A stretch of DNA of 64,000 bases from an uncultured candidatus Brocadiaceae bacterium (GTDB lineage: Bacteria; Planctomycetota; UBA1135; UBA2386), in assembly GCA_964542765.1 (NCBI GenBank), contig CAZIVO010000003.1:11381-75380 (forward strand). The letters are read 5' to 3'. The notes beneath the pieces are model-generated. The model was not told where the DNA came from and did no database searches. It saw nothing but the letters and a program-made list of their open reading frames with translations. Made by a program: the position numbers and the translations under genes. Of the stretch, positions 9,284-38,497 are shown piece by piece (position 1 is the first letter of the stretch; every line of letters begins with the position of its first letter).

Positions 9284-9937
9284 ATGGCGGCGGTTCTGGT
9301 CACAGCGGGTCCTACCCGCGAGCACATCGATGACGTTCGGTTTCTGGCCAATGGCAGCACGGGACGCATGGGGTTTGCCATCGCGGCTGCAGCTCATGGT
9401 CGGGGCCATGAAGTCCAACTCGTAGCCGGCCCCACACATCTGGAGCCGCCTGCGGGTGTTCATGTTCATCGGGTGGTCTCGGCTCTGGAGATGCAGGCCG
9501 AGGCTGAACGTCTCTATCCGGCGACGGATCTTGTTTTTGGAGTCGCGGCGGTCTCGGACTATCGGCCGGCGCGGAGGATGGCGGGCAAGCCAGCGAAGAG
9601 CGAGGATTCGACGGTGCTCCATCTGACCGCGAACCCGGACATCATCGCAAGCATCGGGGCCAGGAAGGGCGATCGTGTAGTTGTGGGTTTTGCTCTGCAG
9701 GTCGTCGGAAAAGGTGGCATGGAAGGTGTGATGGAGCGAGCTCGCGAGAAACTTGTTGCCAAGGAACTCGATTTGATTGTTGTCAATCTGGCTGATGCCA
9801 TGGGGGCGGAGCAGAGCGAAGTTGTGTTGCTATGGGTGGATGGGACAGTCGAACATCTTCCTTGCCAGTCCAAGGAAGCGACGGCGGGCCACATCGTTGA
9901 TGCCGCCATCGGTTTGCTGAGAGGTGGAAGGAAATGA
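9284..9937 (+). CDS. coaB: Phosphopantothenate-cysteine ligase, stand-alone CoaB domain
   Basis: The N-terminus VLVTAGPTREHIDDVRFLANGSTGRMG and the later AAVSDYRP are typical of the Dfp C-terminal half. No CoaC half is present. The stop overlaps the ftsK start (ATGA). Confidence 0.8.
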   Translation: MAAVLVTAGPTREHIDDVRFLANGSTGRMGFAIAAAAHGRGHEVQLVAGPTHLEPPAGVHVHRVVSALEMQAEAERLYPATDLVFGVAAVSDYRPARRMAGKPAKSEDSTVLHLTANPDIIASIGARKGDRVVVGFALQVVGKGGMEGVMERAREKLVAKELDLIVVNLADAMGAEQSEVVLLWVDGTVEHLPCQSKEATAGHIVDAAIGLLRGGRK

Positions 9938-12381
9938 CAGCTACGACTGATGCGCCACGGGCGAGCGATCCACAGGCGAGGTTGCGCGAGGCTCTTTGCC
10001 TGGTCTTGGTAGGGTCTTGTCTATACCTCCTGCTGTCATTGGTGACGCTGTCATTGCCCATCGGTGAGAGTGCTTTGCCGCGAGGGGGGATGCAAAATCT
10101 GGGCGGTACCGTTGGGTATTACGTTGCTCACGGACTGAGTTTTGTCTTTGGGGGTGCGTCACACCTGCTGATCTTGTTCGCCCTCTTGTATGGGGTGTTA
10201 CGTTTCTTGGATCGGCCTGTTGAGCGCGTGGTGCTCAAGGCGCTCGGCGTGGTCGTGTTCGTGGCGATGATGTCACTGCTGCTGGCAGGTCCTGAAGGGA
10301 TTGCTGGTTACAGTGCGCGCTCCCCCTACGGAGCTGGCGGACGTTTCGGAGCGAATCTTTCGCCGAAGCTGCATCAGGCGTTCGGTGGTTCGGGGAGGAT
10401 TCTGGTGCTGATCTTCGGCAGCATCGTGTCCTTGATGCTGGCCACGGAGTGGATGTTCTCAACATTGCTCCGTCGTGGGGCAGATGGTCTGACCTCCGGT
10501 GTGGGGAAGATCAAGCGACGCGGATGGCGATCCGCGGATGGCCTTGAGGCCGAAGGAGAGGACGAGGAATACGAGGAGGAAGACGAGGAATACGAGGACG
10601 AAGAGGAGGAATACGAGGACGAAGAGGAGGAAGACGAGGACGAGGAGGACCAGGAGGAAGACGAGGAGGACGAGGAGGAAGACGAGGAGGAGCCGACTGT
10701 TGTGCCGGCGGGGGGCCGCAAGAGGCCCAGGGGACGTCGCCGTTCGGTGCCTCGCAGGCGCCCATCCCCGGTCAGGCCTCCTTCCCCGGATTTAGGAGGA
10801 ATCGAGCCTGCGCAAACGAGCCTTCCCTTCGATACGGCTTATGTTTTTCCTCCCACGGATCTATTCCGTGAACCGGAGTTGGCTAACGATGATGAGTCGG
10901 AGACTCTCATCAATCGCAATGCTGAGGCGATTGAGCGCCGTTTGCGCTCGTTCAAGCTCGATACCGAGGTCGTTGGGGTCTCCAAGGGCCCTGCCGTGAC
11001 CCAGTACGAGCTCCGCCTTGCCGAAGGCATCAAGGTGTCGAAGATCTCCAGCTATGAAGCTGATCTGGCGGCGGCCTTGCGTGCGGTTCAGGTGCGTGTC
11101 GTGGCGCCGATCCCCGGCAAGGACACGGTCGGCATTGAAGTGCCAAACAGTCAGCGGCGAGTGGTCTTCATGCGCGAGATGCTCGATCTTTATGGGCTCG
11201 CTGAAGAGTGGGCGATCCCGCTGTTCTTGGGCATGGATGTGGCAGGGGAACCAATCGTCGAGGATCTCGCCCGCATGCCGCATCTCCTGATTGCCGGCAC
11301 GACGGGGTCAGGCAAGTCGGTCTGTATCAACACGATCATTTTGTCGATCATCATGACGCGTACGCCGGCGCAGGTTCGGCTGATTCTGATCGACCCCAAG
11401 ATGGTCGAATTGCAGGCTTTCCGTGCCCTTCCTCACCTGAGTTGCGAAGTCGTTACCAATATGAAGAAGGCACCGGCGGTCCTGGGCTGGGCGGTCGAGG
11501 AGATGGACAAGCGCTATACGATGCTCGCGGCTGTGGGTGTGAGTAATATCAGCGGTTTCAACAAGCTTGGGCAGGCCGAGATCGAGGAGCGGTTGGGGCA
11601 TTCGGTTGATCCCGCCGACGCGAGCTTGCCCTATCAGGTTCTTGTCATCGACGAATTTGCCGATCTGATGGCCGTGGCGGCGAAGGATGTCGAGGAGTCC
11701 ATTCAGCGGCTCGCCCAGAAGTCTCGTGCCGTGGGCCTGCATGTGATTCTTGCAACTCAGCGGCCCAGCACCGATGTGATCACCGGGATCATCAAGGCGA
11801 ACTTGCCTTGCCAGGCCGCATTCCGGGTGAAATCGAGGATCGATTCTCGTGTCATTCTGGATAGCAACGGTGCCGAAAAGCTGCTCGGCCACGGTGACAT
11901 GCTTTTTGTCAGGCCGAGCGGGAATGGTGTTGTCAGGGCCCAGGGAGCCTTCGTCGCTGAAGAGGAAATCCAACGGGTGGTGGGGTTCCTCAAGGAAAAC
12001 GGGCCGACACCGTGTTTCTTGCCGGATCTGGTCCAGACCAAGACAGCTTCCGGGAAGAAACCGAGCGAACGAGACGAATACTACGAGCAAGCCGCCGAGG
12101 TGATTCTCGGGCAGCAACGGGGTTCGGCGACGCTCCTTCAGCGCTCCCTTGCGGTCGGCTATACCCGGGCTACGCGACTCCTGGAAATGATGGAGGATGA
12201 TGGGATTGTGGGGCCTTTCTGTGGGTCCAAGTCTCGCGAAGTCCTGCTGACCCTCGAGGAGTGGCAGGATCGTTGCCAAGCGGTTGGCGATGAGTTGGCT
12301 GACCAGGGTGAAGAGGAGCCGGGTGAGGGCTCACCTGACGAGTATGACTACGAGGATGAGGACGAGGCCGTCGAGGCCTGA
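9934..12381 (+). CDS. ftsK: DNA translocase FtsK/SpoIIIE (4-TM anchor, acidic and Pro/Arg linker, motor, gamma domain)
   Basis: Walker A GTTGSGKS and Walker B LVIDEFADL. The gamma winged helix is SATLLQRSLAVGYTRATRLLEMMEDDGIVGP. The N-terminal membrane domain contains GGTVGYYVAHGLSFVFG. Confidence 0.95.
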   Translation: MTATTDAPRASDPQARLREALCLVLVGSCLYLLLSLVTLSLPIGESALPRGGMQNLGGTVGYYVAHGLSFVFGGASHLLILFALLYGVLRFLDRPVERVVLKALGVVVFVAMMSLLLAGPEGIAGYSARSPYGAGGRFGANLSPKLHQAFGGSGRILVLIFGSIVSLMLATEWMFSTLLRRGADGLTSGVGKIKRRGWRSADGLEAEGEDEEYEEEDEEYEDEEEEYEDEEEEDEDEEDQEEDEEDEEEDEEEPTVVPAGGRKRPRGRRRSVPRRRPSPVRPPSPDLGGIEPAQTSLPFDTAYVFPPTDLFREPELANDDESETLINRNAEAIERRLRSFKLDTEVVGVSKGPAVTQYELRLAEGIKVSKISSYEADLAAALRAVQVRVVAPIPGKDTVGIEVPNSQRRVVFMREMLDLYGLAEEWAIPLFLGMDVAGEPIVEDLARMPHLLIAGTTGSGKSVCINTIILSIIMTRTPAQVRLILIDPKMVELQAFRALPHLSCEVVTNMKKAPAVLGWAVEEMDKRYTMLAAVGVSNISGFNKLGQAEIEERLGHSVDPADASLPYQVLVIDEFADLMAVAAKDVEESIQRLAQKSRAVGLHVILATQRPSTDVITGIIKANLPCQAAFRVKSRIDSRVILDSNGAEKLLGHGDMLFVRPSGNGVVRAQGAFVAEEEIQRVVGFLKENGPTPCFLPDLVQTKTASGKKPSERDEYYEQAAEVILGQQRGSATLLQRSLAVGYTRATRLLEMMEDDGIVGPFCGSKSREVLLTLEEWQDRCQAVGDELADQGEEEPGEGSPDEYDYEDEDEAVEA
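10552..10692 (+). repeat. GAG/GAC/GAA-rich low-complexity run encoding a linker of about 47 aa made of E/D/Y in FtsK
   Basis: Encodes EGEDEEYEEEDEEYEDEEEEYEDEEEEDEDEEDQEEDEEDEEEDEEE. It is in frame within ftsK. Confidence 0.9.
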
Positions 12382-12618
12382 TTCTTCGTCAGGCGGCGTG
12401 AGACAGTTTTTCTGTAGCGGTTGAAGGTCCACCGCCGTCGATATCCTGCGATCAGCCTCCGAGCCGCTGCTCAGGCCGCTTGGAACTCCTTGTCCGCTCC
12501 CAATCGGGTCGTTACATTAGCTGACATTCAGCTTGCCCGGCACGTGTGGAGGGGGCTCCAGTGGTGCGGTGCGGAGCTACGGTTAGGAGCGAGCCTTCGG
12601 TTCAGAGGGGGGGCGTCG

Positions 12619-13914
12619 ATGATCGATCAATCCTTGGTAGATGCTCAGCATCGCCAATCTCGGACCCTGCTGAGTTGGGCCATTTCTCTCATCCCGGTAG
12701 CCTTGTCGGTTTTTTGCCTCTCTGCTCTGGGCTACTACCACGTGATGGTCGAGAGCGCGCAGCCGACATCGGGACTGTTGCAGGGAGTGATCGCCGGACT
12801 CTATGGCTTCCTTGGCTTCGTCCCGGCCTTCATGTGCTGTCTGCTCGTTCTGGTCTGGTCATCGATCTGGTTCATCACGGGTGAATCTACGCGCCTTTGG
12901 TCAAAGCTCGGGCGTGTCGTTGTCTTGACCCTGAGCCTTGCCATTCTCATCAACCTCCAGTCTGAGGGCATGGTTCCCGGTGACGGGGGTGGAGATTTGG
13001 GAGCCTATCTCGCCACGCGGCTCCAGAGTCTGTTCGGCTATACCTTCGCAACGCTACTGATGTCACTCGTGGTGGTCGGGGCCTTGCTGATTGCGACAGA
13101 ATTTTTCTTCTACCGCTACTTTGCTGCCATGAGTGGAGCGGATGCTTCCTGTGATGAAGGGGGAGATCTGGGCGTGGAGAATGAGGCTGCTGCGGAGTTC
13201 AAGAACATCGTTGTGGGGCATGTGGCGAAGCCGGCAGCTCCGCGGTTCGCGATGGAGGAAGAGCCTGTATCCGATGTTGTTGCTGAAGAGGGACTACCGC
13301 AAGCAGGGGCACCATCCGGGGATGATCCCATGAGCGAGGAGAGTCCACGCGCACCCCGTAGCTTCTCCGAAGAAGAAGAGGAGGAATACGAGGAAGAGGA
13401 GGAGGGCGAGGAGGAATACGAGGAAGAGGAGGAGGGCGAGGAGGAATACGAGGAAGAGGAGGAGGGCGAGGAGGAAGAGGAGGAATACGAGGAGGAAGAG
13501 GAGGGCGAGGAGGAAGAGGAGGAAGAGGAAGAGGAAGAGGAGGAGGAAGAGGAGGAAGACGAGGAATACGAATACGAATACGAATATGAAGAGGTCGAGG
13601 TGGACGTCGAAGAGGGCGAAGAGCAGGATTCGCAGGCCGACCCTGTCGAGATTCCTTCTCCCGCTGATGACCTGGACTCGCGTCAGGGCCTTCTATTCGC
13701 AGGCGAGGGCCGCCCTTCCGTTGATGATGCCGCTGATCTGGTGATCCGTTCGAACAGGGCGAGTGTCATGTTCTTGCAGCGGAGGCTCCGGGTCTCGCCC
13801 GAAGAGGCATCTGGATTACTCGACGCGCTTCGGGAGAGGGGTGTCGTGGATGGCCAGCCCGGTGAAGATTACGGCCGCATCATCATGGACCTCGCGTCTT
13901 GGGAAGGTCGCTGA
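12619..13914 (+). CDS. Motor-less FtsK paralogue: FtsK-type 4-TM domain, poly-acidic linker and FtsK-gamma-like winged helix, with no ATPase
   Basis: The ORF track start is TTG 12421. ATG 12619 is preceded by gagggggggcgtcg (SD-like). The TM domain carries GDLGAYLATRLQSLFGYTF, compare FtsK GGTVGYYVAHGLSFVFG. The C-terminus ADLVIRSNRASVMFLQRRLRVSPEEASGLLDALRERGVVDG matches the gamma-domain pattern. No Walker motifs are present. Confidence 0.7.
   Translation: MIDQSLVDAQHRQSRTLLSWAISLIPVALSVFCLSALGYYHVMVESAQPTSGLLQGVIAGLYGFLGFVPAFMCCLLVLVWSSIWFITGESTRLWSKLGRVVVLTLSLAILINLQSEGMVPGDGGGDLGAYLATRLQSLFGYTFATLLMSLVVVGALLIATEFFFYRYFAAMSGADASCDEGGDLGVENEAAAEFKNIVVGHVAKPAAPRFAMEEEPVSDVVAEEGLPQAGAPSGDDPMSEESPRAPRSFSEEEEEEYEEEEEGEEEYEEEEEGEEEYEEEEEGEEEEEEYEEEEEGEEEEEEEEEEEEEEEEEDEEYEYEYEYEEVEVDVEEGEEQDSQADPVEIPSPADDLDSRQGLLFAGEGRPSVDDAADLVIRSNRASVMFLQRRLRVSPEEASGLLDALRERGVVDGQPGEDYGRIIMDLASWEGR
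13369..13629 (+). repeat. Poly-acidic coding repeat; three exact 30-bp copies (13381-13470) encoding EEYEEEEEGE, then degenerate E/Y runs
   Basis: gaggaatacgaggaagaggaggagggcgag is repeated exactly at 13381, 13411 and 13441. The region continues to EEYEYEYEYEEVEVDVEEGEEQD. Confidence 0.95.
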
Positions 13915-14191: not shown

Positions 14192-15628
14192 ATGGTTGAC
14201 TTTGGCGCTCCTGGTGATGGGGGGGCAAAACATGTTAGACAAGATGGTTCGCAGTCCGGCTTTCGCGGTGTGAGGGCTTCTTCGAAGGCCCCGCTCGGTG
14301 AGACGAAAACGGTTCCGCACAATCTGGAGGCCGAGCGTTCAGTTCTCGGGGCCTTGCTTCTCTATGCGGACGCGGTTGCCGATGTGAGCGATCTCCTCAA
14401 GCCGGAGGATTTTTATCTCCCCGCGCACGCGCTGATCTTTGAAGCGATCGTATCATCCTATACGGATGCGACGGCGACGGATCCCGTGGTCGTTGCCGAG
14501 GCCCTTTCGCGTAAGGGGCATCTCGATGAGGTGGGAGGTCATGATCGCCTCCTGGATTTGGCGACAGCGACAACTTCAGCTGCGGCGATCGGTTATCACG
14601 CTGAGATTGTCCGGGACAAATCGATCACGCGTAAGCTTCTGGATGCTTGTCACGATATTGCCCGGCAAGCTTATGACAATGCTGGGTCTGCCCGTGACTT
14701 GCTCGATGAAGCGGAGCGCGGCATTTTCGAGATCGCACGTATAGGGAGAAGCGGTGAATCGAAGTCGATCACGGATCTTCTGCAGCAGACTTTCAAGAGG
14801 ATTGACAGTCTTCGTGATCGGTCAGGTCGCCTCCTCGGTTTGGGCACGGGTTTCCAGGACTTGGATGACCTGACCGCGGGTCTCCAGGAAGGTGAGTTGA
14901 TCATTGTCGCTGCGCGACCATCGATGGGAAAAACTTCACTGGCCCTCAACCTTGTTGAGCGCATTGCCTCGGAAGGCAAGGCGGTGGCTTTTTTCAGCCT
15001 GGAAATGTCGAGTCAGCAGATCATTCAAAACATGCTTTGTTGTCGGTCTCAGATCGATGGGCAGGCGATGCGGAAAGGGAGGATCACCGATGCGCAGTAT
15101 CGCAAGCTCACGGAGGAGGCATCGCTCCTCTACGAGGCCCCGCTTTTTGTCGATGATTCGCCAGGCCTTACCCCAACAGCTCTTCGGGCCAAGTGTCGTC
15201 GACTGAAGCAGAAGCATGACATCCAGCTGGTTGTTGTCGATTACTTGCAGCTGATGACGGCCGCTGGCAGGAACGAGAGTCGTCAGCAGGAAATTGCGAC
15301 GATCTCCCGCACGCTCAAGGCGATTGCGAGGGAGTTGAAGGTGCCTGTGGTGGCTCTGTCACAGCTCAATCGCGATGTCGAGAACCGGGATAGTCATCGC
15401 CCTCGGATGAGCGATTTGAGGGAGTCTGGCGCAATTGAACAGGATGCTGATGTTGTCATCCTCTTGCACCGTGAGGAATATTTCAAACCCACCGAAGACA
15501 ATCGCGGCCTTGCGCAGATCATCATTGCCAAGCAGCGCAATGGCCCCACGGGGGAGATCACTCTCCGGTTTTTCCGGCAATACATGCGCTTTGAGGCCTT
15601 CCAGCGTCAGGCAGAACCAATCCACTGA
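14192..15628 (+). CDS. dnaB: Replicative DNA helicase DnaB
   Basis: NLEAERSVLGALLL N-domain, Walker A ARPSMGKTSLALN, Walker B VVVDYLQLM, and the VVALSQLNR motif. 478 aa with no intein. Confidence 0.95.
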   Translation: MVDFGAPGDGGAKHVRQDGSQSGFRGVRASSKAPLGETKTVPHNLEAERSVLGALLLYADAVADVSDLLKPEDFYLPAHALIFEAIVSSYTDATATDPVVVAEALSRKGHLDEVGGHDRLLDLATATTSAAAIGYHAEIVRDKSITRKLLDACHDIARQAYDNAGSARDLLDEAERGIFEIARIGRSGESKSITDLLQQTFKRIDSLRDRSGRLLGLGTGFQDLDDLTAGLQEGELIIVAARPSMGKTSLALNLVERIASEGKAVAFFSLEMSSQQIIQNMLCCRSQIDGQAMRKGRITDAQYRKLTEEASLLYEAPLFVDDSPGLTPTALRAKCRRLKQKHDIQLVVVDYLQLMTAAGRNESRQQEIATISRTLKAIARELKVPVVALSQLNRDVENRDSHRPRMSDLRESGAIEQDADVVILLHREEYFKPTEDNRGLAQIIIAKQRNGPTGEITLRFFRQYMRFEAFQRQAEPIH

Positions 15629-15662: not shown

Positions 15663-18173
15663 TTGGTGGGCATATTGAGCGTTGTGCGTCCCCCTTTTCT
15701 CGTCGCCCGGCTGTTGATTCTTGCGATCCTTACTTTGCAAGGTGAGCGCCTGTGTGCGCAGATAGGGAAGGATGATGAGGGCAAAGAGATCGCCGCTATT
15801 GTCATCGAGGGCGCTGGTGATGATGAAGCGATTCGTCGGCAACTGAAGACCAAGGCAGGCGATGCTCTCAAGGGGACTGATGTTCGCGATGATATTGTCG
15901 CGCTCTGGGAACGGATCAAGGTAAGGGCTCTCGTTTGGGTCGAGGATACTGACGATGGGCGTGTGCGATTGGTGTTCAGTGTCCAGGAACCGATGGCATA
16001 TGACCGAGTCGAGTTCCGAGGCGTCGATCATTACGACGACGGGGAGGTTCGATCGCTCTTGGGAATGGGCGTGGTCCAAAGAGTGACTGATCGCGAGGCT
16101 ATTCAGCACAAGCGCATGCTGATGGCTCGCTACCGCAGAGATGGTTACTACTTCGTTGAGATCGCAATTGACAAGGACAACGAGGAAGGGCTTCTCAGCT
16201 TCGTGGTCGATGAAGGCCCGAAGGTAACGGTTCGAGAGGTGCGCTTCCGAGGCAACACATCCTTTCCAGGCTCAGCTCCCCTGGGATTGTGGCAGAATCT
16301 CGTTGGCAGTTCCGGGATCGAGAGCAAGCCGGGAGTCCTGTTTTCCGGAGCCCCTTACAGTGAAGTTGCTGTCGAGGAAGATCTAGACAAGATTCGAGGT
16401 TTCTATCGTCGCATCGGTTTCAGGGACGCCAAGGCGGAACTGGCACGCCGCTCGTTCGCTGAGGGTATGGAGGAGGTTGATCTGGACTTCCGCATCGTAG
16501 AAGGGCGACGCTACCGGATTTCGGGCTTGGAACTGAGATTTGTCGACGAACGCGGAGAGACGGTTGCGGAATCTCTCTATGGCGAGGAGCGAGTTCTGGA
16601 AGAAGTCAGGGTCAAGCCGGGCGATTTCTATGACCGTGATGAGGTTGCTCGTGACAAGAGGGCTATTCAACGCTTTTACGGCGTTCGGGGGCACCCGAGC
16701 ACTGGCCGTTTCGGGAATACTCCGATCCCGAGCGCCTTCCGGATGGGTGACCCCCGAGAGCTTTTCGATGTAGAAAAAGCAACGATCGGTATCACCTTCG
16801 AGATCTTTGAGGGCACGCCGAAGAAGTTGCGGGATGTGCTCGTCGTGGGGAATACCGCGACCAAGGATCATGTCATCCGGCGCAAGGTATTCCTGTATCC
16901 CGGCGACACCATTGATACCACCGTGGTGGAGAAGTCGCTGAGGACTTTGGATGCGTTGCGCTATTTCCAGAGCATGCGAGATATGACGGGAGCGCGCTTC
17001 GAACTTGAGCCAGTCGAAGGGAGTTCGGAGGAGCTTGATCTACGGGTTCGTGTCAAGGAAGGCGACACCGGCGCACTGGTGTGGGGTGCTGGTGTCAGCT
17101 CGGGCCTTGGCATGGTCGGGCGCTTGCAATTTACCAAGCGGAACTTCGATCTGTTTCAGTTGCCGTCATCGCTCAATCCGGCCACCGTGGTTGGTGAGAT
17201 CATGGAGAACAAAGCTTTCCATGGCGCTGGGCAGGAACTGGAAATGTTCCTGGCGCCTGGCACGGAGATCAGCATGTTCCGGATGGATTTGAGTAATCCG
17301 GATCTTTTTGGCGAGCACATCGACACGATCGGCGGGCGGATTCAGGGCTTTGAGCAGATGCGAATTATGGATTCCTTCAATACGGATTCGCTGGGACTTG
17401 TGCTTGGAATGCAGCGTAACTTCAGTGAGGAACTCCAGGCGGGGATCTTCATCCGCCAAGAGACAGTCGATGTAGATGATCTTGAATCGGATGCTCCTGG
17501 CCTGGTCAAGGATGCTGAGGGCCAGACCGAACTCCGTGGTATGGGATTCAATTTCCGGTGGCGAGATTTCGATCATTTCATGCGGCCGACCGAAGGTTTC
17601 GAGGTGAAGGCTCGCGGAGAGGTTCTTGGTGGATCGTTCGGTGCGGATGAAAGCTTCTGGAAGATCGGTCTCAGCTACCGCTACTACCATCCGTTGTTCG
17701 TCGATTCGCGGGATCGTGCTCATGTACTGCATTTCCGCCAGAACTTTGATTTCGGGCGGGCGTTTGGCGGGTCTGATGACCTGTTCCTCACGGAGCGGTA
17801 CTACATGGGTGGCAGCAATCTGCGAGGCTTTGACCAGAGGCAGGCAGGCCCGGTTGAGAATGGTCATCCACTTGGAGGAGAGGCGAGGTTTCTGACAACG
17901 CTGGAGTATCAGTTTCCTCTGGTCTCTACTCGGCTCGAATCACAATTGGGTGAGACGGAGCTATTACGGGGCGTGATCTTCATGGATACCGGACAATTGG
18001 GAATGGGGATCGATGATTCATCTTTCAGCGATCTCAGGGTCAGTGTGGGCTTTGGAGTTAGGATCATTGTTCCTTACTTCACTTTCCCGATAGCGCTCGA
18101 CCTTGGTTTCCCTGTCATGAGCGAAGAAACGGATGATCGCAAGGTGTTCTACTTTACTCTGGGCAAGTTCTGA
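15663..18173 (+). CDS. bamA: Outer-membrane protein assembly factor BamA (POTRA repeats plus Omp85 barrel)
   Basis: Signal peptide, then repeated POTRA-like units (I..I.IEG......I). The C-terminal barrel contains YYMGGSNLRGF and ends in ...FYFTLGKF (terminal Phe). Confidence 0.9.
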   Translation: MVGILSVVRPPFLVARLLILAILTLQGERLCAQIGKDDEGKEIAAIVIEGAGDDEAIRRQLKTKAGDALKGTDVRDDIVALWERIKVRALVWVEDTDDGRVRLVFSVQEPMAYDRVEFRGVDHYDDGEVRSLLGMGVVQRVTDREAIQHKRMLMARYRRDGYYFVEIAIDKDNEEGLLSFVVDEGPKVTVREVRFRGNTSFPGSAPLGLWQNLVGSSGIESKPGVLFSGAPYSEVAVEEDLDKIRGFYRRIGFRDAKAELARRSFAEGMEEVDLDFRIVEGRRYRISGLELRFVDERGETVAESLYGEERVLEEVRVKPGDFYDRDEVARDKRAIQRFYGVRGHPSTGRFGNTPIPSAFRMGDPRELFDVEKATIGITFEIFEGTPKKLRDVLVVGNTATKDHVIRRKVFLYPGDTIDTTVVEKSLRTLDALRYFQSMRDMTGARFELEPVEGSSEELDLRVRVKEGDTGALVWGAGVSSGLGMVGRLQFTKRNFDLFQLPSSLNPATVVGEIMENKAFHGAGQELEMFLAPGTEISMFRMDLSNPDLFGEHIDTIGGRIQGFEQMRIMDSFNTDSLGLVLGMQRNFSEELQAGIFIRQETVDVDDLESDAPGLVKDAEGQTELRGMGFNFRWRDFDHFMRPTEGFEVKARGEVLGGSFGADESFWKIGLSYRYYHPLFVDSRDRAHVLHFRQNFDFGRAFGGSDDLFLTERYYMGGSNLRGFDQRQAGPVENGHPLGGEARFLTTLEYQFPLVSTRLESQLGETELLRGVIFMDTGQLGMGIDDSSFSDLRVSVGFGVRIIVPYFTFPIALDLGFPVMSEETDDRKVFYFTLGKF

Positions 18174-21464: not shown

Positions 21465-21710
21465 CGGCTTTTTACGGATTTGTGTGGGCGGGGCTATCGA
21501 TGCAGTTGCCCCGGCTTCCCCCCCTCTAACCGGCCCTGCTAGCGTCTGTAAGGCTGCAGATGACTTTCTGCTCTGGAAATCGATCCTCGATACCGTATCC
21601 ATGATCCCTGACCATGGGAGTGGCGCCTCGGCATCGACTCAGGAATGCTTGAGATGTGGTGTCCTGGCGACCGATGGACCTCATACAACTGCAACTGCTG
21701 GGTTTTGAAT

Positions 21711-22466
21711 ATGTTCCGAACGCGTAAACCAGAAAAGGATGATCTTGCTAGCGATGACATGGTCGTCATCGTTGAGCAGGCGGTGAATCCCTTCCTCGTC
21801 GTGTTCCATGAACCATCGGGATTCCGCGCAGAGCAGATCAGGGCGCTGCGGAACAGACTCATCGCCATGAATCCGGATAGCGCTGCCAAAACATTGGTTG
21901 TCACCTCTGCGATCAGAGGTGAAGGAAAATCGGTGACGGCCGCCAATTTGGCCATGGCATTTGCGCAACTCGATCACTGTCCGGTCCTTCTCTTGGACGG
22001 CGACTTGCGGTCGCCATCGTTGGAATCCTATCTCAGTCTTGGCACGCAGCCGGGTATTGCGGATGTGCTCATGGGCCGTGTCAGCCTGGATGAAGCGATT
22101 CGAGAGACGGGAATCAACAATCTGTGGATGATGGGAGCAGGGATGGATAGTGCTGAGGGGCCCTCCGAGATCATCACGTCACCCAAGGTGGGTGAGCTGT
22201 TTGCACGATTGAAGCAGCAATTCCATTACGTGATTGTTGATACCTCGGCATGTGTGCCCGCCACGGACGCTAGCGTTTTTTCGGCGCGGGCAGATGGAAC
22301 GTTGGTTGTGGTAAGACTCGAGCATTCATCGAAGACCTTGACACAAGAAGCGATCAAGAATCTCCAGGATCTGGGGGGCAATATTCTCGGCACCTTCGTG
22401 ACCGAGGTGCGTGGAGCTGATCCGGAAGCGGACCCTCGCCTACGAGGCACTAGCAGAGGGAGGTAG
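21711..22466 (+). CDS. CpsD/CapB (BY-kinase)-like P-loop ATPase without a C-terminal Tyr cluster or a Wzz-type activator
   Basis: EPSGFRAEQIRALRNRL lead-in, Walker A SAIRGEGKS, Walker A' LLLDGDLRSP, Walker B YVIVDTSA. The C-terminus RGADPEADPRLRGTSRGR contains no Tyr. The likely start is ATG 21711; the ORF track gives 21645. Confidence 0.7.
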   Translation: MFRTRKPEKDDLASDDMVVIVEQAVNPFLVVFHEPSGFRAEQIRALRNRLIAMNPDSAAKTLVVTSAIRGEGKSVTAANLAMAFAQLDHCPVLLLDGDLRSPSLESYLSLGTQPGIADVLMGRVSLDEAIRETGINNLWMMGAGMDSAEGPSEIITSPKVGELFARLKQQFHYVIVDTSACVPATDASVFSARADGTLVVVRLEHSSKTLTQEAIKNLQDLGGNILGTFVTEVRGADPEADPRLRGTSRGR

Positions 22467-22468
22467 CC

Positions 22469-23260
22469 TTGGGGAATCTCGGCAGGGGTTTGAAGGATGC
22501 TCTTCGCAAGCTGGCGCATCGGACCTCGGTTGATCAGCTGATCGAGAGCGGTGTCACCCAGGTCAATGTTGTTGGCATGGATCGGATCGCTCAGCTCGTT
22601 GAGGAGGCGGTATACCGCAGCTTGAAGGATAAATTCCTCAGCGGGGAGCGTGCCGAGGTTGCAGAATCGACGCGCGAGGAGTTCGTGAACCTCATGCGGA
22701 GTAATGAGAGCCTGGAGCAGTCTCGCAATGAGGCGGTAGAGGCAAGGGAGCGCGCCGAGGAGTCCGTGGATGAGCTGCGTCGCGAACTCGAGGATCACAA
22801 GCGCTCTTTACGTGAGAAACTCGCCAGCGCTGAGGCCATCGAGCGCCCTCTCCAAGAGAGCGAGAATGCGGCCATCCTCGCTCGGGTAGAGGAGTTCTTT
22901 GATGATGTTGCAAGCGACTCGCCAGAGGCCTTGCTCCAGTTCAAGGGGCGGATGGCTGAGCTTGTGATGAGCTTGATTGTCAAGGAGCGAGAGGATGCGA
23001 TCCTGGCTAGGCAAGTGGCGAAGGATGCCGAGGCAGCTCGACTGGAGCGGCGCATCGAGAAGATCACAGGGATCTTGCGAGAGACCGAAGGGAAGTTAGC
23101 CTACGTGGCCAGCCTCAAGGATGTGGGTAGTGGCATCTCCTCTGTATTCCGTGAAGTACAGGGGCTCTCCGCGGAGGATATTTTTTTCGAGAAGAAGACC
23201 GCTCTGATGAGCAACCTCTTCGAAGCGAACATGGCATTGCAACAGGGCCTTGAGGATTAG
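22469..23260 (+). CDS. Acidic coiled-coil protein of unknown function
   Basis: 263 aa, E/R/A/L-rich with heptad-like stretches (EQSRNEAVEARERAEESVDELRRELEDHKRSLREKLASAEA). It has no signal peptide or TM segment. The TTG start lies 2 nt after the upstream stop. Confidence 0.6.
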   Translation: MGNLGRGLKDALRKLAHRTSVDQLIESGVTQVNVVGMDRIAQLVEEAVYRSLKDKFLSGERAEVAESTREEFVNLMRSNESLEQSRNEAVEARERAEESVDELRRELEDHKRSLREKLASAEAIERPLQESENAAILARVEEFFDDVASDSPEALLQFKGRMAELVMSLIVKEREDAILARQVAKDAEAARLERRIEKITGILRETEGKLAYVASLKDVGSGISSVFREVQGLSAEDIFFEKKTALMSNLFEANMALQQGLED

Positions 23261-23285
23261 ACGAGAAGCTTGAGAGGGATCGAAG

Positions 23286-24368
23286 ATGATGGCAGATGAA
23301 GGCACAGGCGTGAAGGAAACCACGCAATCCCAGGAAGCGCAGGGGCCACGCAAGGACCATGGCGTCCTCTATGTGGGGATGGACCTGGGGACCTCGCGCA
23401 CGTCGATTTCGGCTAGCAATGGTGTGCGAGAATCTGTCTTCTCCGTTGTCGGCTACCCCAAGGATGTGGTCAGTCGGAAACTGTTGCAGCGGGATGTCCT
23501 GTTTGGCAAGGAGGCGATGGACAAGAGACTGTCCTTGGATTTTTATCGCCCTCTTGAGAAGGGCGTCCTCAAGGATGATGAGAAGGATAAAGGGGCTGAT
23601 GCTGCCAAGGATCTGATCGGTGAGGCGATCCGGATCTCTCAACCGCGTTCCGACGAGTTGATCTATGCCGTGATCGGTGTTCCTGCTCAGGCCTCGATGA
23701 AGAACAAGGAGGCGATAGTCGAGGCGGCGCGCGAGCATGTTGATTCCGTGATGCTTTGCAGTGAGCCCTTTGCTGTGGCTTATGGGCTGGAGATGCTCGA
23801 AGACGTTTTGGTTGTCGACATCGGAGCCGGGACCATGGATATGTGCCGTATGCACGGCACGATGCCCGAAGAGGCGGATCAGATCACATCCGAAATCGCC
23901 GGAGATGCTGTCGATGCACGGTTATCGGAGTTGGTCGGTGAAGCCTGTGCAGGCGTTCAGTTCACGCCCCAGATGATCAAGGAACTCAAGGAGCGGCATG
24001 CTTACGTGGGGAATCCGGCCGGGCCTTGCCTCGTGCAGTTGCCAGTGAATGGCAAGCCGACGGAGTTCGATATCACGGCGCAGGTGAAGGAGGCTTGTGA
24101 GATCCTTGTGCCGGAGATCACCCAAGGAGTGACCTCCCTGATTTCCTCCTTCGACCCCGAATTCCAGGAGAGGTTGCGTGGCCGGGTCCTCATCGCCGGT
24201 GGCGGTTCCCTCGTGAAGGGGCTGGATCTGGCGGTCGAGGAATCTCTGAATAAAAATCTTGGAGGCGCCAAGGTGATCCGTATCGAGGAACCGATCTACG
24301 GCGGTGCCAACGGTGCCCTGAAAATCGCGCAAGACATGCCCGGGGAATACTGGGAGAGGCTGAAGTAG
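23286..24368 (+). CDS. MamK-like bacterial actin (ASHA/actin-fold ATPase)
   Basis: Actin-fold motifs VGMDLGTSRT (phosphate 1), VVDIGAGTMD (phosphate 2) and IAGGGS (adenosine). VVGYPKDVVSRKLL, VIGVPA, SEPFAVAYGL and the terminal ..EYWERL match my recollection of Magnetospirillum MamK better than MreB, ParM or FtsA. Confidence 0.75.
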   Translation: MMADEGTGVKETTQSQEAQGPRKDHGVLYVGMDLGTSRTSISASNGVRESVFSVVGYPKDVVSRKLLQRDVLFGKEAMDKRLSLDFYRPLEKGVLKDDEKDKGADAAKDLIGEAIRISQPRSDELIYAVIGVPAQASMKNKEAIVEAAREHVDSVMLCSEPFAVAYGLEMLEDVLVVDIGAGTMDMCRMHGTMPEEADQITSEIAGDAVDARLSELVGEACAGVQFTPQMIKELKERHAYVGNPAGPCLVQLPVNGKPTEFDITAQVKEACEILVPEITQGVTSLISSFDPEFQERLRGRVLIAGGGSLVKGLDLAVEESLNKNLGGAKVIRIEEPIYGGANGALKIAQDMPGEYWERLK

Positions 24369-34775: not shown

Positions 34776-37442
34776 TTACCTGCCCCGCAGGAGAAGTTCC
34801 GAATACTGATCGGGGACGATTTTTGGCTCGGTTTCCTGGCCGATGATGATCGTCGCGCGGATCAGGATGAGGATCTTCATGTTCTGCACGTAGTTCCCCT
34901 TGCGGCTGAACAGGAAAGAGAGCCCTGGAAGATCGCCCAGAATGGGGATCTTGGAGTTCATCTGCTGCTTTTCTGCCAGTTTCATGCCACCGAGCATCAA
35001 GGTGCCGCCATCGGGCATGGTGACGGTTGTTCGGACCCGTTGCAGGGTTACTCGAGGAAGCTGGATCTGAACCGGCTGTCCGACGCCAAGCGTCGTGACG
35101 AAGTTCGGGATGGGCTTCTCAAGGGTCATGACCGTCGGTCGCAACTCCATGGTGATGAACTTGCGGTCAGCCGAGACCACGGGTCGCACATCCAGAACAA
35201 CGCCGTCACGGACGACATCGACCACCGGGTTTGCAACCGATGCGGCTTGGGCGATCTCGACCTCGAAATCGCGGATGTAGGAGGTGTGCTGCAACACCGA
35301 CATATTGGCGCGGGTGTTGTTGTAGACGATCAGCCGTGGCGCAGTGATCTCCTGGCGACGCTCTTGTTTTGAGACGGCGCGCAAGATGACTTCGAGTTCG
35401 GTGTCGTCCAAGAAGGTGTACTGAAGTGCCAGCCCGCCACTGTTCTGCAGGCGCCCTTCGCCGCCCAAGGTGCGGTCGAAGAGGTTCTCGGTGCGGGCCA
35501 TGATGTCGCCATCACCTCCGTCATCGAAGAATATGCCGGGCTCCGTGCCGGTGCCGGGTGCGCCGGGTGTTGCGGGATTGATCAGCTCGCGGCGACCGAA
35601 ATCGTCAAAGCCAGCGTTCTGGCGATTGTTCCTCTCGAGTCCGCGTCCGGGTGTGCCTTCCGGCGCTTGATTGCCCAGTCCCCGGAAGTCGACGCCGACA
35701 TCTTCGAGGAAGCTGTCTTCAACCTTCAGGAAGCGGGTTTCAATATCGACCTGGATACCGACGGCCTGACGAAGGTCGCTGAGCAGGTCGCTGATCTTGC
35801 CGTGGACTGTCTTGTTATGGCGGATCAGGAGCACGCCACGTTGCTCCGTGAGATTGGCTTCGCCAGCATCCCACGAGTCAGGGTCGATGTTGGCGCGGAT
35901 GATATCTGTCAACTTGCTGGCATCCACGACGGTGGGCCTGGGCTCCTCGTCCTCCTCCTCGAAATACTCTTCTTCATCGCCAGGGGCCTTCAGTTTGAGT
36001 TCGCGCCCTGGCTTGTCGGAGACGCCTTGCACGAGATCCCGGACCTCATACTGGACCAGATACATTTTGCCGCCGGCGTTTTCGGGGGTGACCAGATGGA
36101 CCACGCCATTTCCGATCTTCCAGCGGATGCCGGTCAAGTTGCCGATCACGTCGAGTGCGCGTTCCACTGACATGGGCGGCAGGTTGAAGTCGGTGAGGGT
36201 CGTGGTATCCGTGTCGAGTTCCTTGACTTCGGCGGAGACGATGAAGTTGACCTCGGTAACCTTGGCGTAGTGCTGTGCCCAGTCTTCCACCGCTGCTTCC
36301 GCGACGCGGTGCTCCAGCGATGTGGCGCGTAGTTTCCCGACGATGGCCTTTTCTTCAGGCGACTCGAGTTCGTCATCCGGGGTGAACTGCAGAGGTTTGC
36401 GCTCGCGCACGATGGCCCATCGTTCGAGGTCATACTGGATGACGTCGATCTGGGTGACGTCACCGGAGTTCAGATCGTCGAAGGTCTTGGTCCACTCGGC
36501 CTTCCAATCCTGGCGGAGGACGTCGAGATTGGTCTCGTGACGCGCTCGCTCGGCGAGTTTGCGTAGAGCCTTGGCATGGGTGTTGGCGGAGTCGAAGGCG
36601 AGGGCCTCATCGATCAGATTGATGGATTTTGCGTAGTTGCCGATCTGGAAGTCGAAGTTCGCCTGCTCCAGCAAGAGTTTTGCCTTTTGGTCCCGAGCGA
36701 TGCGCATCGCCCTTTCCTTCTCGGCGAGTTCGGCTTGTGAGGCAGCGATACGAGCCTTCTCGGCATAGGCATCGGCCTTGACCTTGCCCATCTCGGCCGA
36801 GCGCATGGTGGCTTCGATCTGTCCCTCGAGATCCGTCCCTGGTTGGTAGAAGGGTGAGTAGCGCAGGATGAGAAGAGAGCGCCGGAGAGCTTCGATAGCG
36901 TCTCCAAAACGTCCGGCTTCGATGTGGGCATTACCGACAGCGAGTTCCCTGCGGGCACGGAAGCGCGTCTGCTGGCTGGCGACCTGGGATTCCTGGACCT
37001 TGTCGGAGAAGGTTTTCTCAACGCTCGGCTTTTCGAGTCCGAGAGCATCGCGGGCGGTCAACAGGATGTTGCGTGCATCCTTGTTGGTCGAGTCGATCTC
37101 CAGCACTTCGGAGGCGATGCGGGCGGCGTCTGACCAGAGTCGCAACTCCATCGATTTGCGCGCCTCTTCGATCGAGCGACGGATGATGAAGCCTCTCTGC
37201 TGTCGGCCGACGGTCGGTCCGGGGTCTTGGGCTGTGCTCGATGGCTCGGCTGCTTCTTTTTCGCTCGTAGCTACGGGCGTGGCACCGGAGTCATCGGGCG
37301 TGGCACCGGAGTCATCGGGCGTGGTGACTACGTCATCGGGCGCGGCAGCTGCGTCATCGGCCGGTGGTGTACCGGAGCACGAGTTGAGGCTGAGCCATGC
37401 GAGTGCAAGAACGCCTGAGCGAAACAAGAGGGCAAACTTCAT
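34776..37442 (-). CDS. Secretin-family outer-membrane channel (paralogue 2) with an N-terminal TPR-like helical region
   Basis: Signal peptide with Cys (WLSLNSC). An acidic PDDxxxT repeat follows, then a helical region and an N0-like domain (MSVERALDVIGNLTGIRWKIGNGVVHLVT). The secretin domain reads VVLDVRPVVSADRKFITMELRP...MPDGGTLMLGGM...SKIPILGDLPGLSFLFS...ILILIRATI. Confidence 0.85.
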   Translation of the reverse strand: MKFALLFRSGVLALAWLSLNSCSGTPPADDAAAAPDDVVTTPDDSGATPDDSGATPVATSEKEAAEPSSTAQDPGPTVGRQQRGFIIRRSIEEARKSMELRLWSDAARIASEVLEIDSTNKDARNILLTARDALGLEKPSVEKTFSDKVQESQVASQQTRFRARRELAVGNAHIEAGRFGDAIEALRRSLLILRYSPFYQPGTDLEGQIEATMRSAEMGKVKADAYAEKARIAASQAELAEKERAMRIARDQKAKLLLEQANFDFQIGNYAKSINLIDEALAFDSANTHAKALRKLAERARHETNLDVLRQDWKAEWTKTFDDLNSGDVTQIDVIQYDLERWAIVRERKPLQFTPDDELESPEEKAIVGKLRATSLEHRVAEAAVEDWAQHYAKVTEVNFIVSAEVKELDTDTTTLTDFNLPPMSVERALDVIGNLTGIRWKIGNGVVHLVTPENAGGKMYLVQYEVRDLVQGVSDKPGRELKLKAPGDEEEYFEEEDEEPRPTVVDASKLTDIIRANIDPDSWDAGEANLTEQRGVLLIRHNKTVHGKISDLLSDLRQAVGIQVDIETRFLKVEDSFLEDVGVDFRGLGNQAPEGTPGRGLERNNRQNAGFDDFGRRELINPATPGAPGTGTEPGIFFDDGGDGDIMARTENLFDRTLGGEGRLQNSGGLALQYTFLDDTELEVILRAVSKQERRQEITAPRLIVYNNTRANMSVLQHTSYIRDFEVEIAQAASVANPVVDVVRDGVVLDVRPVVSADRKFITMELRPTVMTLEKPIPNFVTTLGVGQPVQIQLPRVTLQRVRTTVTMPDGGTLMLGGMKLAEKQQMNSKIPILGDLPGLSFLFSRKGNYVQNMKILILIRATIIIGQETEPKIVPDQYSELLLRGR
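37275..37358 (-). repeat. 21-bp in-frame tandem repeat x4 (two exact copies) encoding PDD(S/V/A)xxT units after the secretin-2 signal peptide
   Basis: gggcgtggcaccggagtcatc at 37275 and 37296 (exact), with degenerate copies at 37317 and 37338. Confidence 0.9.
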
Positions 37443-37599: not shown

Positions 37600-38379
37600 C
37601 TAAGGTCTTTTTCTGACCGGGATTTCCGGCAAGCCGAGTCGTCGGTTGACCCGTTTGATGTCCTCCCAGGTATCAGCCTTCGCGGAGGGCTGCCGGAGCA
37701 GATAAGCCGGATGCCAGGTCGCGACCACGGTAATCCCGTTGATTTCGAGGTCTTGGCCACGCAGGCGGCGCATCGGCAGGGTCGTGGAAAGGAGGTTTTG
37801 TGCCGCCACCCGGCCCAGCGTGACGATGACTTCTGGCTCGATGATCTCGATTTGCCGGCGCAGGAAGGGCAGGCAAGCGCCCACCTCATCGGGCTGTGGG
37901 TCACGATTGCCCGGAGGCCGGCACTTGTTGACGTTGGCGATGAAGACTTCGGGGCGTGAAAGGCCCATGGCATTTTCGATGATTTTGTCCAGGAGTTGGC
38001 CCGCAGGCCCCACGAAAGGGCGTCCCTGCCGGTCTTCCTGCTGGCCAGGAGCTTCGCCGATGAACATGACCCGGGCATTTGCCGAGCCTTCACCGAAAAC
38101 CAGTTGCTGGCGGTTTTCGTGCAATCGGCACCGGATACAAGGGCCGATTTCCTCCCGGAGGGCATCGAGAGCCTCCTGTCGTGAAGAGGCCGGGTCGAGC
38201 ACTGGGTTCACCGCTTCCGTCTTGCCGGGCACGCCGAGGGGAAAGTCACCCCCGTAACAGGCGGCGGCATGGCGGAGGTGCAAGATGAGGGATGTGCACG
38301 TGTCGGGCATGGCGGCTTGAGTATGACGTGAGAGGGCATCAGATTCAGGTCCGAACAGATTTATGATCCGCGTCTCCAT
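37600..38379 (-). CDS. Uracil-DNA glycosylase, family 4 (Fe-S type)
   Basis: CIRCRL...GEGSANARVMFIGEAPGQQEDRQGRPFVGPAGQLL...NVNKCRPPGNRDP. The likely start is ATG 38379 (METRIINLF). The longer ORF extending to 38550 would collide with the divergent gene. Confidence 0.85.
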   Translation of the reverse strand: METRIINLFGPESDALSRHTQAAMPDTCTSLILHLRHAAACYGGDFPLGVPGKTEAVNPVLDPASSRQEALDALREEIGPCIRCRLHENRQQLVFGEGSANARVMFIGEAPGQQEDRQGRPFVGPAGQLLDKIIENAMGLSRPEVFIANVNKCRPPGNRDPQPDEVGACLPFLRRQIEIIEPEVIVTLGRVAAQNLLSTTLPMRRLRGQDLEINGITVVATWHPAYLLRQPSAKADTWEDIKRVNRRLGLPEIPVRKRP

Positions 38380-38497
38380 GGGCGAGTTTCGTGGCCGGGC
38401 GGTCCCTTCGCGGGACTCATGGGTGGGTGATGGAATTCGTCCACGAAGACGCTTGCCGTAGCGGTGGGCTGTCGGCGTTATCATCCTTTGCGTCCGA

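Follow-up and report, generated by a model that had tools for sequence, protein, structure and literature searches.

We analyzed a gene that lies immediately downstream of ftsK in a 64,000-nucleotide stretch of DNA (the window; positions 11,381 to 75,380 of the forward strand of contig CAZIVO010000003.1, assembly GCA_964542765.1) from an uncultured candidatus Brocadiaceae bacterium of the Planctomycetota. FtsK ties chromosome segregation and dimer resolution to division, and the ftsK gene of the window encodes the complete protein, with Pfam scores of 64.9 bits for FtsK_4TM, 104.1 for FtsK_alpha, 191.6 for FtsK_SpoIIIE, and 78.7 for FtsK_gamma and with a Walker A motif, GTTGSGKS, at residue 455. 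The gene that follows encodes a far shorter protein consisting of an FtsK-type membrane domain, an acidic linker, and a gamma-derived winged helix, with no motor in between (Table 1). We conclude that it is an old, stably maintained, motor-deleted paralog of FtsK, and below we set out what its conserved residues suggest about its function.

The longest open reading frame (ORF) over the paralog runs from 12421 to 13914 on the forward strand and opens with a TTG at 12421. We consider the ATG at 12619 to be the better start, because a G-rich stretch resembling a ribosome-binding site lies just 5′ of it and because it agrees with the N termini of all homologs. A promoter and terminator scan of the interval between ftsK and the paralog gave nothing convincing, and in the flanking intergenic regions neither an Rfam nor a tRNA scan returned a match.

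Table 1. Features of the window, listed by position, with the basis of each assignment or a remark
Feature	Position (nt)	Strand	Basis or remark
DFP (CoaB-type) gene, stand-alone	9284..9937	+	Overlaps the ftsK start by 4 nt
Full-length ftsK, 815 aa (four-helix transmembrane [4TM] domain, acidic linker, alpha, beta motor, gamma)	9934..12381	+	Pfam, Walker A
QTSLPF motif in the FtsK linker, just before alpha	10813..10830	+	Counterpart of RQGLLF in the paralog
Motor-less FtsK paralog, coding sequence	12619..13914	+	431 aa plus stop; ORF, Pfam, homolog N termini, BLASTP, hhalign
FtsK-type four-helix membrane domain	12667..13134	+	Hydropathy, AlphaFold2 model, Pfam FtsK_4TM, hhalign, invariant columns
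Juxtamembrane helix, here GVENEAAAEFKNIV	13171..13212	+	Family consensus [ED]xGVEx[AE][VA]T[DE]HL[RK]GL
Polyanionic disordered linker	13213..13653	+	Predicted local distance difference test (pLDDT) <50; contains a 30-nt tandem-repeat array, 13378-13571
Linear motif RQGLLF before gamma	13681..13698	+	Family consensus R-Q-[QG]-x-L-F
Gamma-derived winged helix, aa 366-431, with MDLASWEGR as its C-terminal helix	13714..13911	+	Pfam, phmmer, Foldseek, pLDDT, residue table
dnaB	14192..15628	+	Downstream neighbor of the paralog, conserved in the main clade only
bamA	15663-18173	+	After dnaB
ParA/MinD-like ATPase gene	21645-22466	+	In three-gene group
ORF without Pfam match	22469-23260	+	In three-gene group
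Divergent actin-fold protein gene	23286-24368	+	MreB_Mbl 57.6 bits, Salactin 55.5 bits
Secretin-domain genes, 863 and 888 aa	25255-27846; 34776-37442	-	About 7 kb apart, tetratricopeptide (TPR)-repeat proteins nearby
Uracil-DNA glycosylase (UDG)-family gene	37600-38550	-	Near the secretin-domain genes

A membrane anchor and a winged helix with no motor

An earlier reading of the window, made from the DNA letters and their translations (the sequence-only reading), had proposed that this gene combines an FtsK-type membrane anchor with a gamma domain and lacks the motor, and the profile, structure, and motif searches reported here uphold that architecture. Hydropathy and an AlphaFold2 model built from a 13-sequence alignment place the membrane helices at residues 17 to 46, 53 to 87, 93 to 112, and 126 to 172, and the domain that they form carries the motifs WS(S)IWF and (A/S)T(D/E)FFF, both of which are invariant across the family. 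In Pfam, hidden Markov models of both domains score above their cutoffs, namely, FtsK_4TM (PF13491) with 24.9 bits over residues 61 to 165, a marginal pass of the 23.1-bit cutoff, and FtsK_gamma (PF09397) with 37.5 bits over residues 366 to 417 (cutoff, 30.6), so that the protein belongs to both of these domain families. The marginal call for the membrane domain is secured by matches to FtsK itself: BLASTP against the upstream FtsK gives two collinear matches, one in the N-domain (27% over 134 residues, E = 5e-6) and one at the C terminus (29% over 91 residues, E = 3e-5), and a profile-profile comparison of the paralog family with the FtsKs of the same clade (hhalign, N-domain) gives 99.3% with an E value of 4e-20 over 157 columns. 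The transmembrane alignment quoted in the sequence-only reading was right about the domain and wrong about the register, in that it paired residues 125 to 159 of the paralog with residues 57 to 87 of FtsK; BLAST and hhalign place them against residues 134 to 175 (the loop and helix 4), not against the helix-2 region. Within the 4TM domain, the first and second halves are similar to each other.

In the AlphaFold2 model, four long helices form the membrane part, the C terminus folds into a winged helix with pLDDT values of 90 to 95, and the region between them has values below 50. In a Foldseek search of the Protein Data Bank (PDB), the top 13 matches to the paralog are all FtsK gamma domains (2J5P, 2VE8, and 2VE9; TM-scores of 0.73 to 0.84, normalized by target length), and a phmmer search of PDB sequences likewise returned FtsK gamma domains as best matches of the winged helix (2VE8, E = 5.7e-4). 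The protein contains no Walker A pattern, the Pfam search gave no match to the motor (FtsK_SpoIIIE, PF01580) or to the alpha domain (PF17854), and an NCBIfam search gave no meaningful match. Having looked for the ATPase, the alpha domain, and a sequence-reading gamma domain (see below) and found none of the three, we place the paralog outside the functional FtsK/SpoIIIE translocases.

A conserved family under purifying selection

A word-indexed search found 18 relatives of the paralog. An exhaustive phmmer search of the whole library with the paralog N-domain found 160 clusters (at 50% identity) with E ≤ 1e-3, of which 139 have E ≤ 1e-10; the best 150 of these 160 matches are all members of the paralog family, with no full-length FtsK among them. 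Full-length members measure 400 to 750 residues, and an FtsK profile matches family members only at N-domain/linker or gamma positions. The named sources are metagenome-assembled genomes (MAGs) of Planctomycetota or Planctomycetes, or unclassified bacteria, and none is cultured; the contig of the window itself matches GCA_030748075.1, a Planctomycetota MAG. Current annotations call the family proteins “hypothetical” or, incorrectly, “DNA translocase FtsK.”

We further surveyed 23 species-level loci, using a 7-sequence alignment for the scan, of which 19 are complete, with no contig end falling inside them. One uninterrupted ORF spans both the N- and the C-domain in 18 of these 19 complete loci, across approximately 35 to 55% protein divergence. 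The sole departure is L023 (5848 to 7500), in which a stop or frame change just before gamma leaves the rest in another frame, a break that reflects either an assembly error or lineage-specific decay. When the alpha and beta domains of FtsK were compared by tblastn with 20 paralog genes in all frames and at E values up to 100, only noise was returned (best E = 1.1), and the possibility raised with the sequence-only reading, that of a recent pseudogene with remnants of the motor, finds no counterpart in these 20 genes. By the Nei-Gojobori method, the ratio of nonsynonymous to synonymous substitution rates (dN/dS) in the closest pair (L009/L016), for which the proportion of synonymous differences (pS) is unsaturated, is 0.06 in the N-domain and 0.20 in gamma; across all pairs with estimable dS, in some of which pS is saturated, it ranges from 0.06 to 0.40 and from 0.17 to 0.38, respectively. 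The linker is much freer than either domain in the same comparison. The N-domain and gamma are under purifying selection, and the paralog is a real, selected gene.

These data bear directly on whether the paralog could be a remnant of a second ftsK copy in decay or an artifact of assembly, which we hold to be exceedingly improbable. The broken frame of L023 is what such an origin would predict, and a linker as rich in repeats as this one could be misassembled; however, the intact ORFs of the other complete loci, the size of the family, the signature of purifying selection, and the lack of motor remnants in any frame rule this explanation out, and the family has conserved motifs of its own that FtsK lacks.

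Loss of the KOPS-reading residues from the winged helix

To ask what the winged helix retains of FtsK gamma, we aligned 29 paralog domains with the gamma domains of 18 FtsKs encoded in the same genomes and with those of Escherichia coli and Pseudomonas aeruginosa, both of which were confirmed against PDB entries. In E. coli, the triple substitution R1300A/E1303A/E1306A makes FtsK blind to the FtsK-orienting polar sequences (KOPS) while XerCD activation is kept (PMC2680272). The equivalents of R1297, R1300, E1303, and E1306 are present in 18 of the 18 clade FtsKs. In the paralogs, by comparison, position 1297 carries an acidic residue (E or D) in 18 of 29 and never R, position 1300 is R in a single protein and acidic in 13, and E1303 and E1306 are kept in 3 and 1, respectively; the paralog of the window has G, D, and R at positions 1300, 1303, and 1306. 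Position 1296 is D or E in 19 of the 29, and the recognition helix of the paralogs opens with two acidic residues where FtsK has T/N-R. This comparison does not bear out the premise of the sequence-only reading that the gamma domain of the paralog recognizes KOPS-like motifs or anchors the terminus, and a DNA motif shared across the paralogs is unlikely because the DNA-facing positions are unconserved within the family.

The contacts of E. coli FtsK gamma with XerD are made by Q1288, R1289, R1292, I1293, G1294, and N1296, among which R1289 is critical (PMC5052618, Table 1). According to the same work, a 9-residue peptide spanning positions 1289 to 1297 stimulates recombination by itself, and the XerD-binding and KOPS-binding surfaces of gamma overlap, making the two activities mutually exclusive (PMC5052618). 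In the paralogs, R1289 is present in all 29 domains and R1292 in 23, position 1288 is Q in 20 and R or K in 9, and position 1293 is V, I, or L. Since the KOPS-reading residues are lost and the XerD-contact arginines R1289 and R1292 are kept, the winged helix is, on these residue patterns, most likely a protein-binding module and not a sequence reader. The gamma domain of the clade FtsKs (12034 to 12270, forward strand, in the window) keeps all of the KOPS-reading residues and has A, S, or G at the equivalent of R1292 in 120 of 120 orthologs. This position is R or K in the FtsKs examined from E. coli, P. aeruginosa, Sumerlaeota, and gammaproteobacteria, which are few outgroups, because the search for FtsK homologs returned same-clade orthologs only.

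The residue patterns also bear on the function suggested by the sequence-only reading, that of a membrane-to-DNA tether, in which the winged helix would bind DNA nonspecifically or at a new motif and so tie the nucleoid or the terminus to the membrane or the division site. It folds as a DNA-binding winged helix and in this respect is identical to FtsK gamma; arginines that contact the DNA backbone are kept (the R1281 equivalent and R1289 in 29 of 29, the wing arginine in about two-thirds); and the domain resembles the clade FtsK gamma in net charge. We nevertheless consider such a tether unlikely, given a recognition helix that begins with an acidic pair (D/E at 1296, E/D at 1297), a lack of conservation at the positions of R1300, E1303, and E1306 that makes a common DNA motif improbable, and a strongly polyanionic linker that should repel DNA.

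Two short motifs in an otherwise unconserved linker

The extreme Glu/Tyr linker remarked on in the sequence-only reading is indeed present, with 64 Glu and 8 Tyr among the 83 residues from 249 to 331, and Tandem Repeats Finder describes the underlying tract as 6.5 copies of a 30-nt unit with 86% matches. Across the family, linkers vary from 91 to 520 residues and are always acidic, with a net charge of −0.10 to −0.51 per residue. Tandem repeats of 9 to 60 nt on the forward strand encode the acidic linker in ftsK (10554 to 10692) as well as in the paralog (13368 to 13590); they imply recent expansion by slippage, and the linker lengths probably vary from strain to strain.

Apart from two short motifs, the paralog linker is unconserved. 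The first is a juxtamembrane element, G-[VA]-E followed by a conserved pattern, which occurs in 89 of 117 family members and over which AlphaFold2 places, with low confidence, a helix at residues 186 to 198. The second is Q-x-x-L-F, found in 88 of 107 family representatives, against 0.46 of 107 when these 60-residue segments are shuffled; an R precedes the Q in 68 of the 88 carriers, and in 82 of them the motif sits 25 to 26 residues ahead of the RAS anchor of gamma. The clade FtsKs carry a counterpart in front of the alpha domain, [QH]-x-x-L-P-[FWY], which is preceded by a basic, Pro-rich stretch and occurs in at least 102 of 113 orthologs; it is an unstudied linker motif of FtsK itself. The FtsKs of Sumerlaeota (L028 and L029) have Q-[IM]-D-M-F at this position. 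RQGLLF of the paralog and QTSLPF of FtsK are both disordered in the AlphaFold2 models (pLDDT below 50 for the FtsK motif). A structural role within the monomer, that is, packing on alpha or gamma, is unsupported by these models, and a conserved motif in a disordered region is what a docking motif would look like.

One partner that such a motif brings to mind is the sliding clamp, whose binding consensus is Q-L-x-L-F (PMC4549789). R-Q-x-x-L-F in the paralog, and Q-x-x-L-P-F in FtsK, might bind the beta clamp and thereby link clamps left on newly made DNA to FtsK and the membrane. The motif agrees with the consensus at positions 1, 4, and 5 (Q, L, and F in 88 of 107), lies in a disordered region as clamp-binding motifs do, is conserved far above the chance expectation, and in the main clade belongs to a gene directly upstream of dnaB. 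Yet, its second position is Q or G and not hydrophobic, the distant family members L031 and L032 show no dnaB adjacency, our literature searches gave no report of FtsK binding the clamp, and the fixed distance between motif and gamma could mean that the two work jointly; we give this possibility very little weight.

Genomic context and origin

In the main clade, the gene order DFP-ftsK-paralog-dnaB-bamA recurs, with ftsK upstream within the flank in 17 of the 23 species-level loci and dnaB directly downstream in 16. The context is different in the distant members L031 and L032, where the paralog begins 17 nt after ftsK or overlaps the ftsK stop and where the downstream genes encode a radical-SAM/TRAM-domain protein (methylthiotransferase type), a CDP-alcohol phosphatidyltransferase (pgsA type), PgpA, a SpoIIE-type phosphatase, and PriA. 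The position of DFP upstream of ftsK is kept in both contexts, and in L032 a separate Flavoprotein (CoaC-type) gene precedes the DFP gene. Because the adjacency of ftsK and the paralog persists in two contexts with different downstream genes, we regard it as an old, conserved linkage, which fits a tandem duplication and a shared function. Of the functional tie to ftsK that the sequence-only reading had drawn, the adjacency is borne out in both syntenic contexts, and a regulatory or partner role with FtsK is plausible. We downgraded the adjacency of dnaB as a functional clue, as it is confined to the main clade and missing from L031 and L032. In two sister MAGs, L005 and L011, LLRRHLGC replaces LQRRLRV in the paralog, which changes R1292 to G; neither has dnaB downstream, and in L011 ftsK lies 5 kb upstream and not adjacent. 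Context and putative contact face have changed together in this sublineage.

Two features connect the paralog with the FtsK of its own lineage. First, it has (I)P(R)P...R-Q-x-x-L-F directly before gamma, as FtsK has a Pro-rich stretch and Q-x-x-L-P-F directly before alpha. Second, both proteins have an extra helix after the gamma wing, LTLEEWQDR in FtsK (within 12271 to 12378, forward strand) and MDLASWEGR in the paralog (13885 to 13911, forward strand), whereas the E. coli and P. aeruginosa gamma domains that we examined stop soon after the wing. In FtsK, this helix is followed by an acidic tail with DEYDYEDEDE. Because the pre-alpha motif and the post-wing helix are common to both, the paralog looks as though it came from the FtsK of this very lineage by in-frame deletion of alpha and beta, and its R-Q-x-x-L-F appears to be inherited from the pre-alpha segment of the clade FtsK. 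We propose that ftsK was duplicated in tandem in an uncultured Planctomycetota lineage and that one copy would then have lost alpha and beta in frame.

A proposed membrane-tethered adaptor beside FtsK

The reading that we consider best, and put forward tentatively, is that the motor-deleted paralog acts as a membrane-tethered protein adaptor alongside FtsK. It would sit in the inner membrane through its FtsK-type 4TM domain, at the same place as FtsK, where the conserved juxtamembrane helix would lead into a polyanionic, disordered tether of 90 to 520 residues that presents R-Q-x-x-L-F and the gamma-derived winged helix. The paralog would be a non-motor subunit or adaptor beside FtsK, and it might form rings of its own or mixed rings through the 4TM domain; the corresponding domain of E. 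coli FtsK is reported to hexamerize at midcell (PMC3870252). The tethered winged helix and the motifs would hold a protein partner at the membrane or the division site, for which a Xer recombinase is the best candidate and the FtsK motor itself an alternative. A more specific version follows from the gamma domains of the two neighbors: because FtsK keeps the DNA-reading residues and has lost R1292, and the paralog shows the opposite pattern, the two jobs of gamma might have been divided between the tandem genes, with the paralog as a dedicated, membrane-tethered Xer activator beside a pure translocase, although we think it rather doubtful that the division went this far.

Several observations weigh against the adaptor. 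On the XerD side, G1294 is kept in 5 of the 29 paralogs, and N1296, which in E. coli forms a hydrogen bond with E119 of XerD, is D, E, or Q in most of them, so that the XerD interface appears only partly kept. On the DNA side, the equivalent of R1281, present in all 29, contacts the DNA backbone in FtsK gamma, as do R1289 and the wing arginine, and the winged helix may bind DNA nonspecifically. The wing arginine, which the alignment at first sight suggested to be lost, is shifted by one position in a longer loop and is retained in 18 of 29 paralogs; the net charge of the winged helix gives no sign of lost DNA binding either, being no different from that of the clade FtsK gamma. Furthermore, ftsK is not within 6 kb upstream in 5 of the 23 loci, mixed oligomers of paralog and FtsK are purely inferred, and the whole argument is built on MAG sequences of uncultured hosts, with the mechanism read from residue patterns.

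The membrane domain could instead be the functional core of the paralog, which would then be a modulator of the FtsK ring or a scaffold of the divisome that co-assembles or competes with the N-domains of FtsK, with the C-terminal domain playing a secondary part. The outcome would be fewer or timed motors per ring, or a division function of the type served by the FtsK N-domain. In line with this idea, the N-domain is the most constrained part of the protein, both in its dN/dS of the closest pair and in its invariant WS-IW and T(D/E)FFF motifs, the tight adjacency to ftsK suggests co-expression, and the E. coli N-domain is reported to hexamerize (PMC3870252). Moreover, FtsK is the sole essential member of the division (dcw) cluster in Planctopirus limnophila and organizes the divisome in Chlamydia, both of which are FtsZ-less bacteria of the Planctomycetes-Verrucomicrobia-Chlamydiae (PVC) group (PMC12283558). 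But the N-domain has diverged far from those of FtsK, with no full-length FtsK among the best 150 of its 160 phmmer matches, which favors assemblies of its own rather than mixed rings, and the strong conservation of the C-terminal domain and RQxxLF means that these are not secondary; we judge a role of this kind to be improbable.

As an adaptor or otherwise, the paralog is a naturally evolved separation-of-function FtsK that is widely conserved in its lineage and joins a membrane domain and linker motifs to a gamma domain retaining part of its surface. If the paralog does activate Xer or dock on FtsK, it would show how the two functions of gamma, which exclude each other, can come apart. It further draws attention to unstudied linker motifs and is relevant to chromosome segregation and to FtsZ-less division in PVC bacteria.

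Other features of the window

Approximately 8 kb downstream of ftsK, three adjacent genes on the forward strand (21645 to 24368) encode a ParA/MinD-like ATPase, a protein without a Pfam match, and a divergent actin-fold protein (Table 1). In a lineage whose division is atypical, the group might serve as a cytoskeletal or partition module. In locus L004, a ParA-like gene follows hutH-hutU as well. Further downstream, on the reverse strand, lie two secretin-domain genes and a UDG-family gene (Table 1).

Comparison with known systems

Our literature searches for motor-less FtsK or gamma-only membrane proteins found no description of this architecture, and the systems that come closest each share a part of it. 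The FtsK translocases of E. coli, of P. aeruginosa, and of the upstream gene have the same order of a 4TM domain, a long linker, and a C-terminal gamma, which makes the paralogy clear, and with the clade FtsK the paralog further has in common the pre-alpha motif and the post-wing helix. In contrast to FtsK, the paralog lacks alpha and the RecA-type beta motor, so that it cannot translocate DNA, has a juxtamembrane helix motif of its own, and does not keep R1297, R1300, E1303, and E1306. SftA of Bacillus subtilis is also a second FtsK-family paralog that has shed one module and works alongside a full-length translocase. It is the converse of the window paralog, having shed the membrane domain and retained the motor together with gamma.

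Reuse of the gamma winged helix outside a translocase is seen in a phage small terminase with an FtsK gamma domain; this protein differs from the paralog in that it serves DNA packaging, has no membrane anchor, and carries a gamma presumed to bind DNA (PMC8190038). Activation of XerD by protein contact, without a DNA motor, has a reported precedent in XafT of the TLC-phi satellite phage (PMC6744903, PMC9226527). XafT is an unrelated small phage protein that is neither membrane anchored nor derived from gamma, and for the paralog a contact with XerD is only proposed. Finally, the FtsK-N and ftsK[deltaLC] constructs of E. coli are, like the paralog, membrane-anchored forms of FtsK without a motor, and the N-domain alone supports division and is reported to hexamerize at midcell (PMC3870252, PMC12283558, PMC2680272). 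These constructs are laboratory truncations of a single ftsK, whereas the paralog is a natural second gene that stands beside an intact ftsK and carries a gamma-derived domain.

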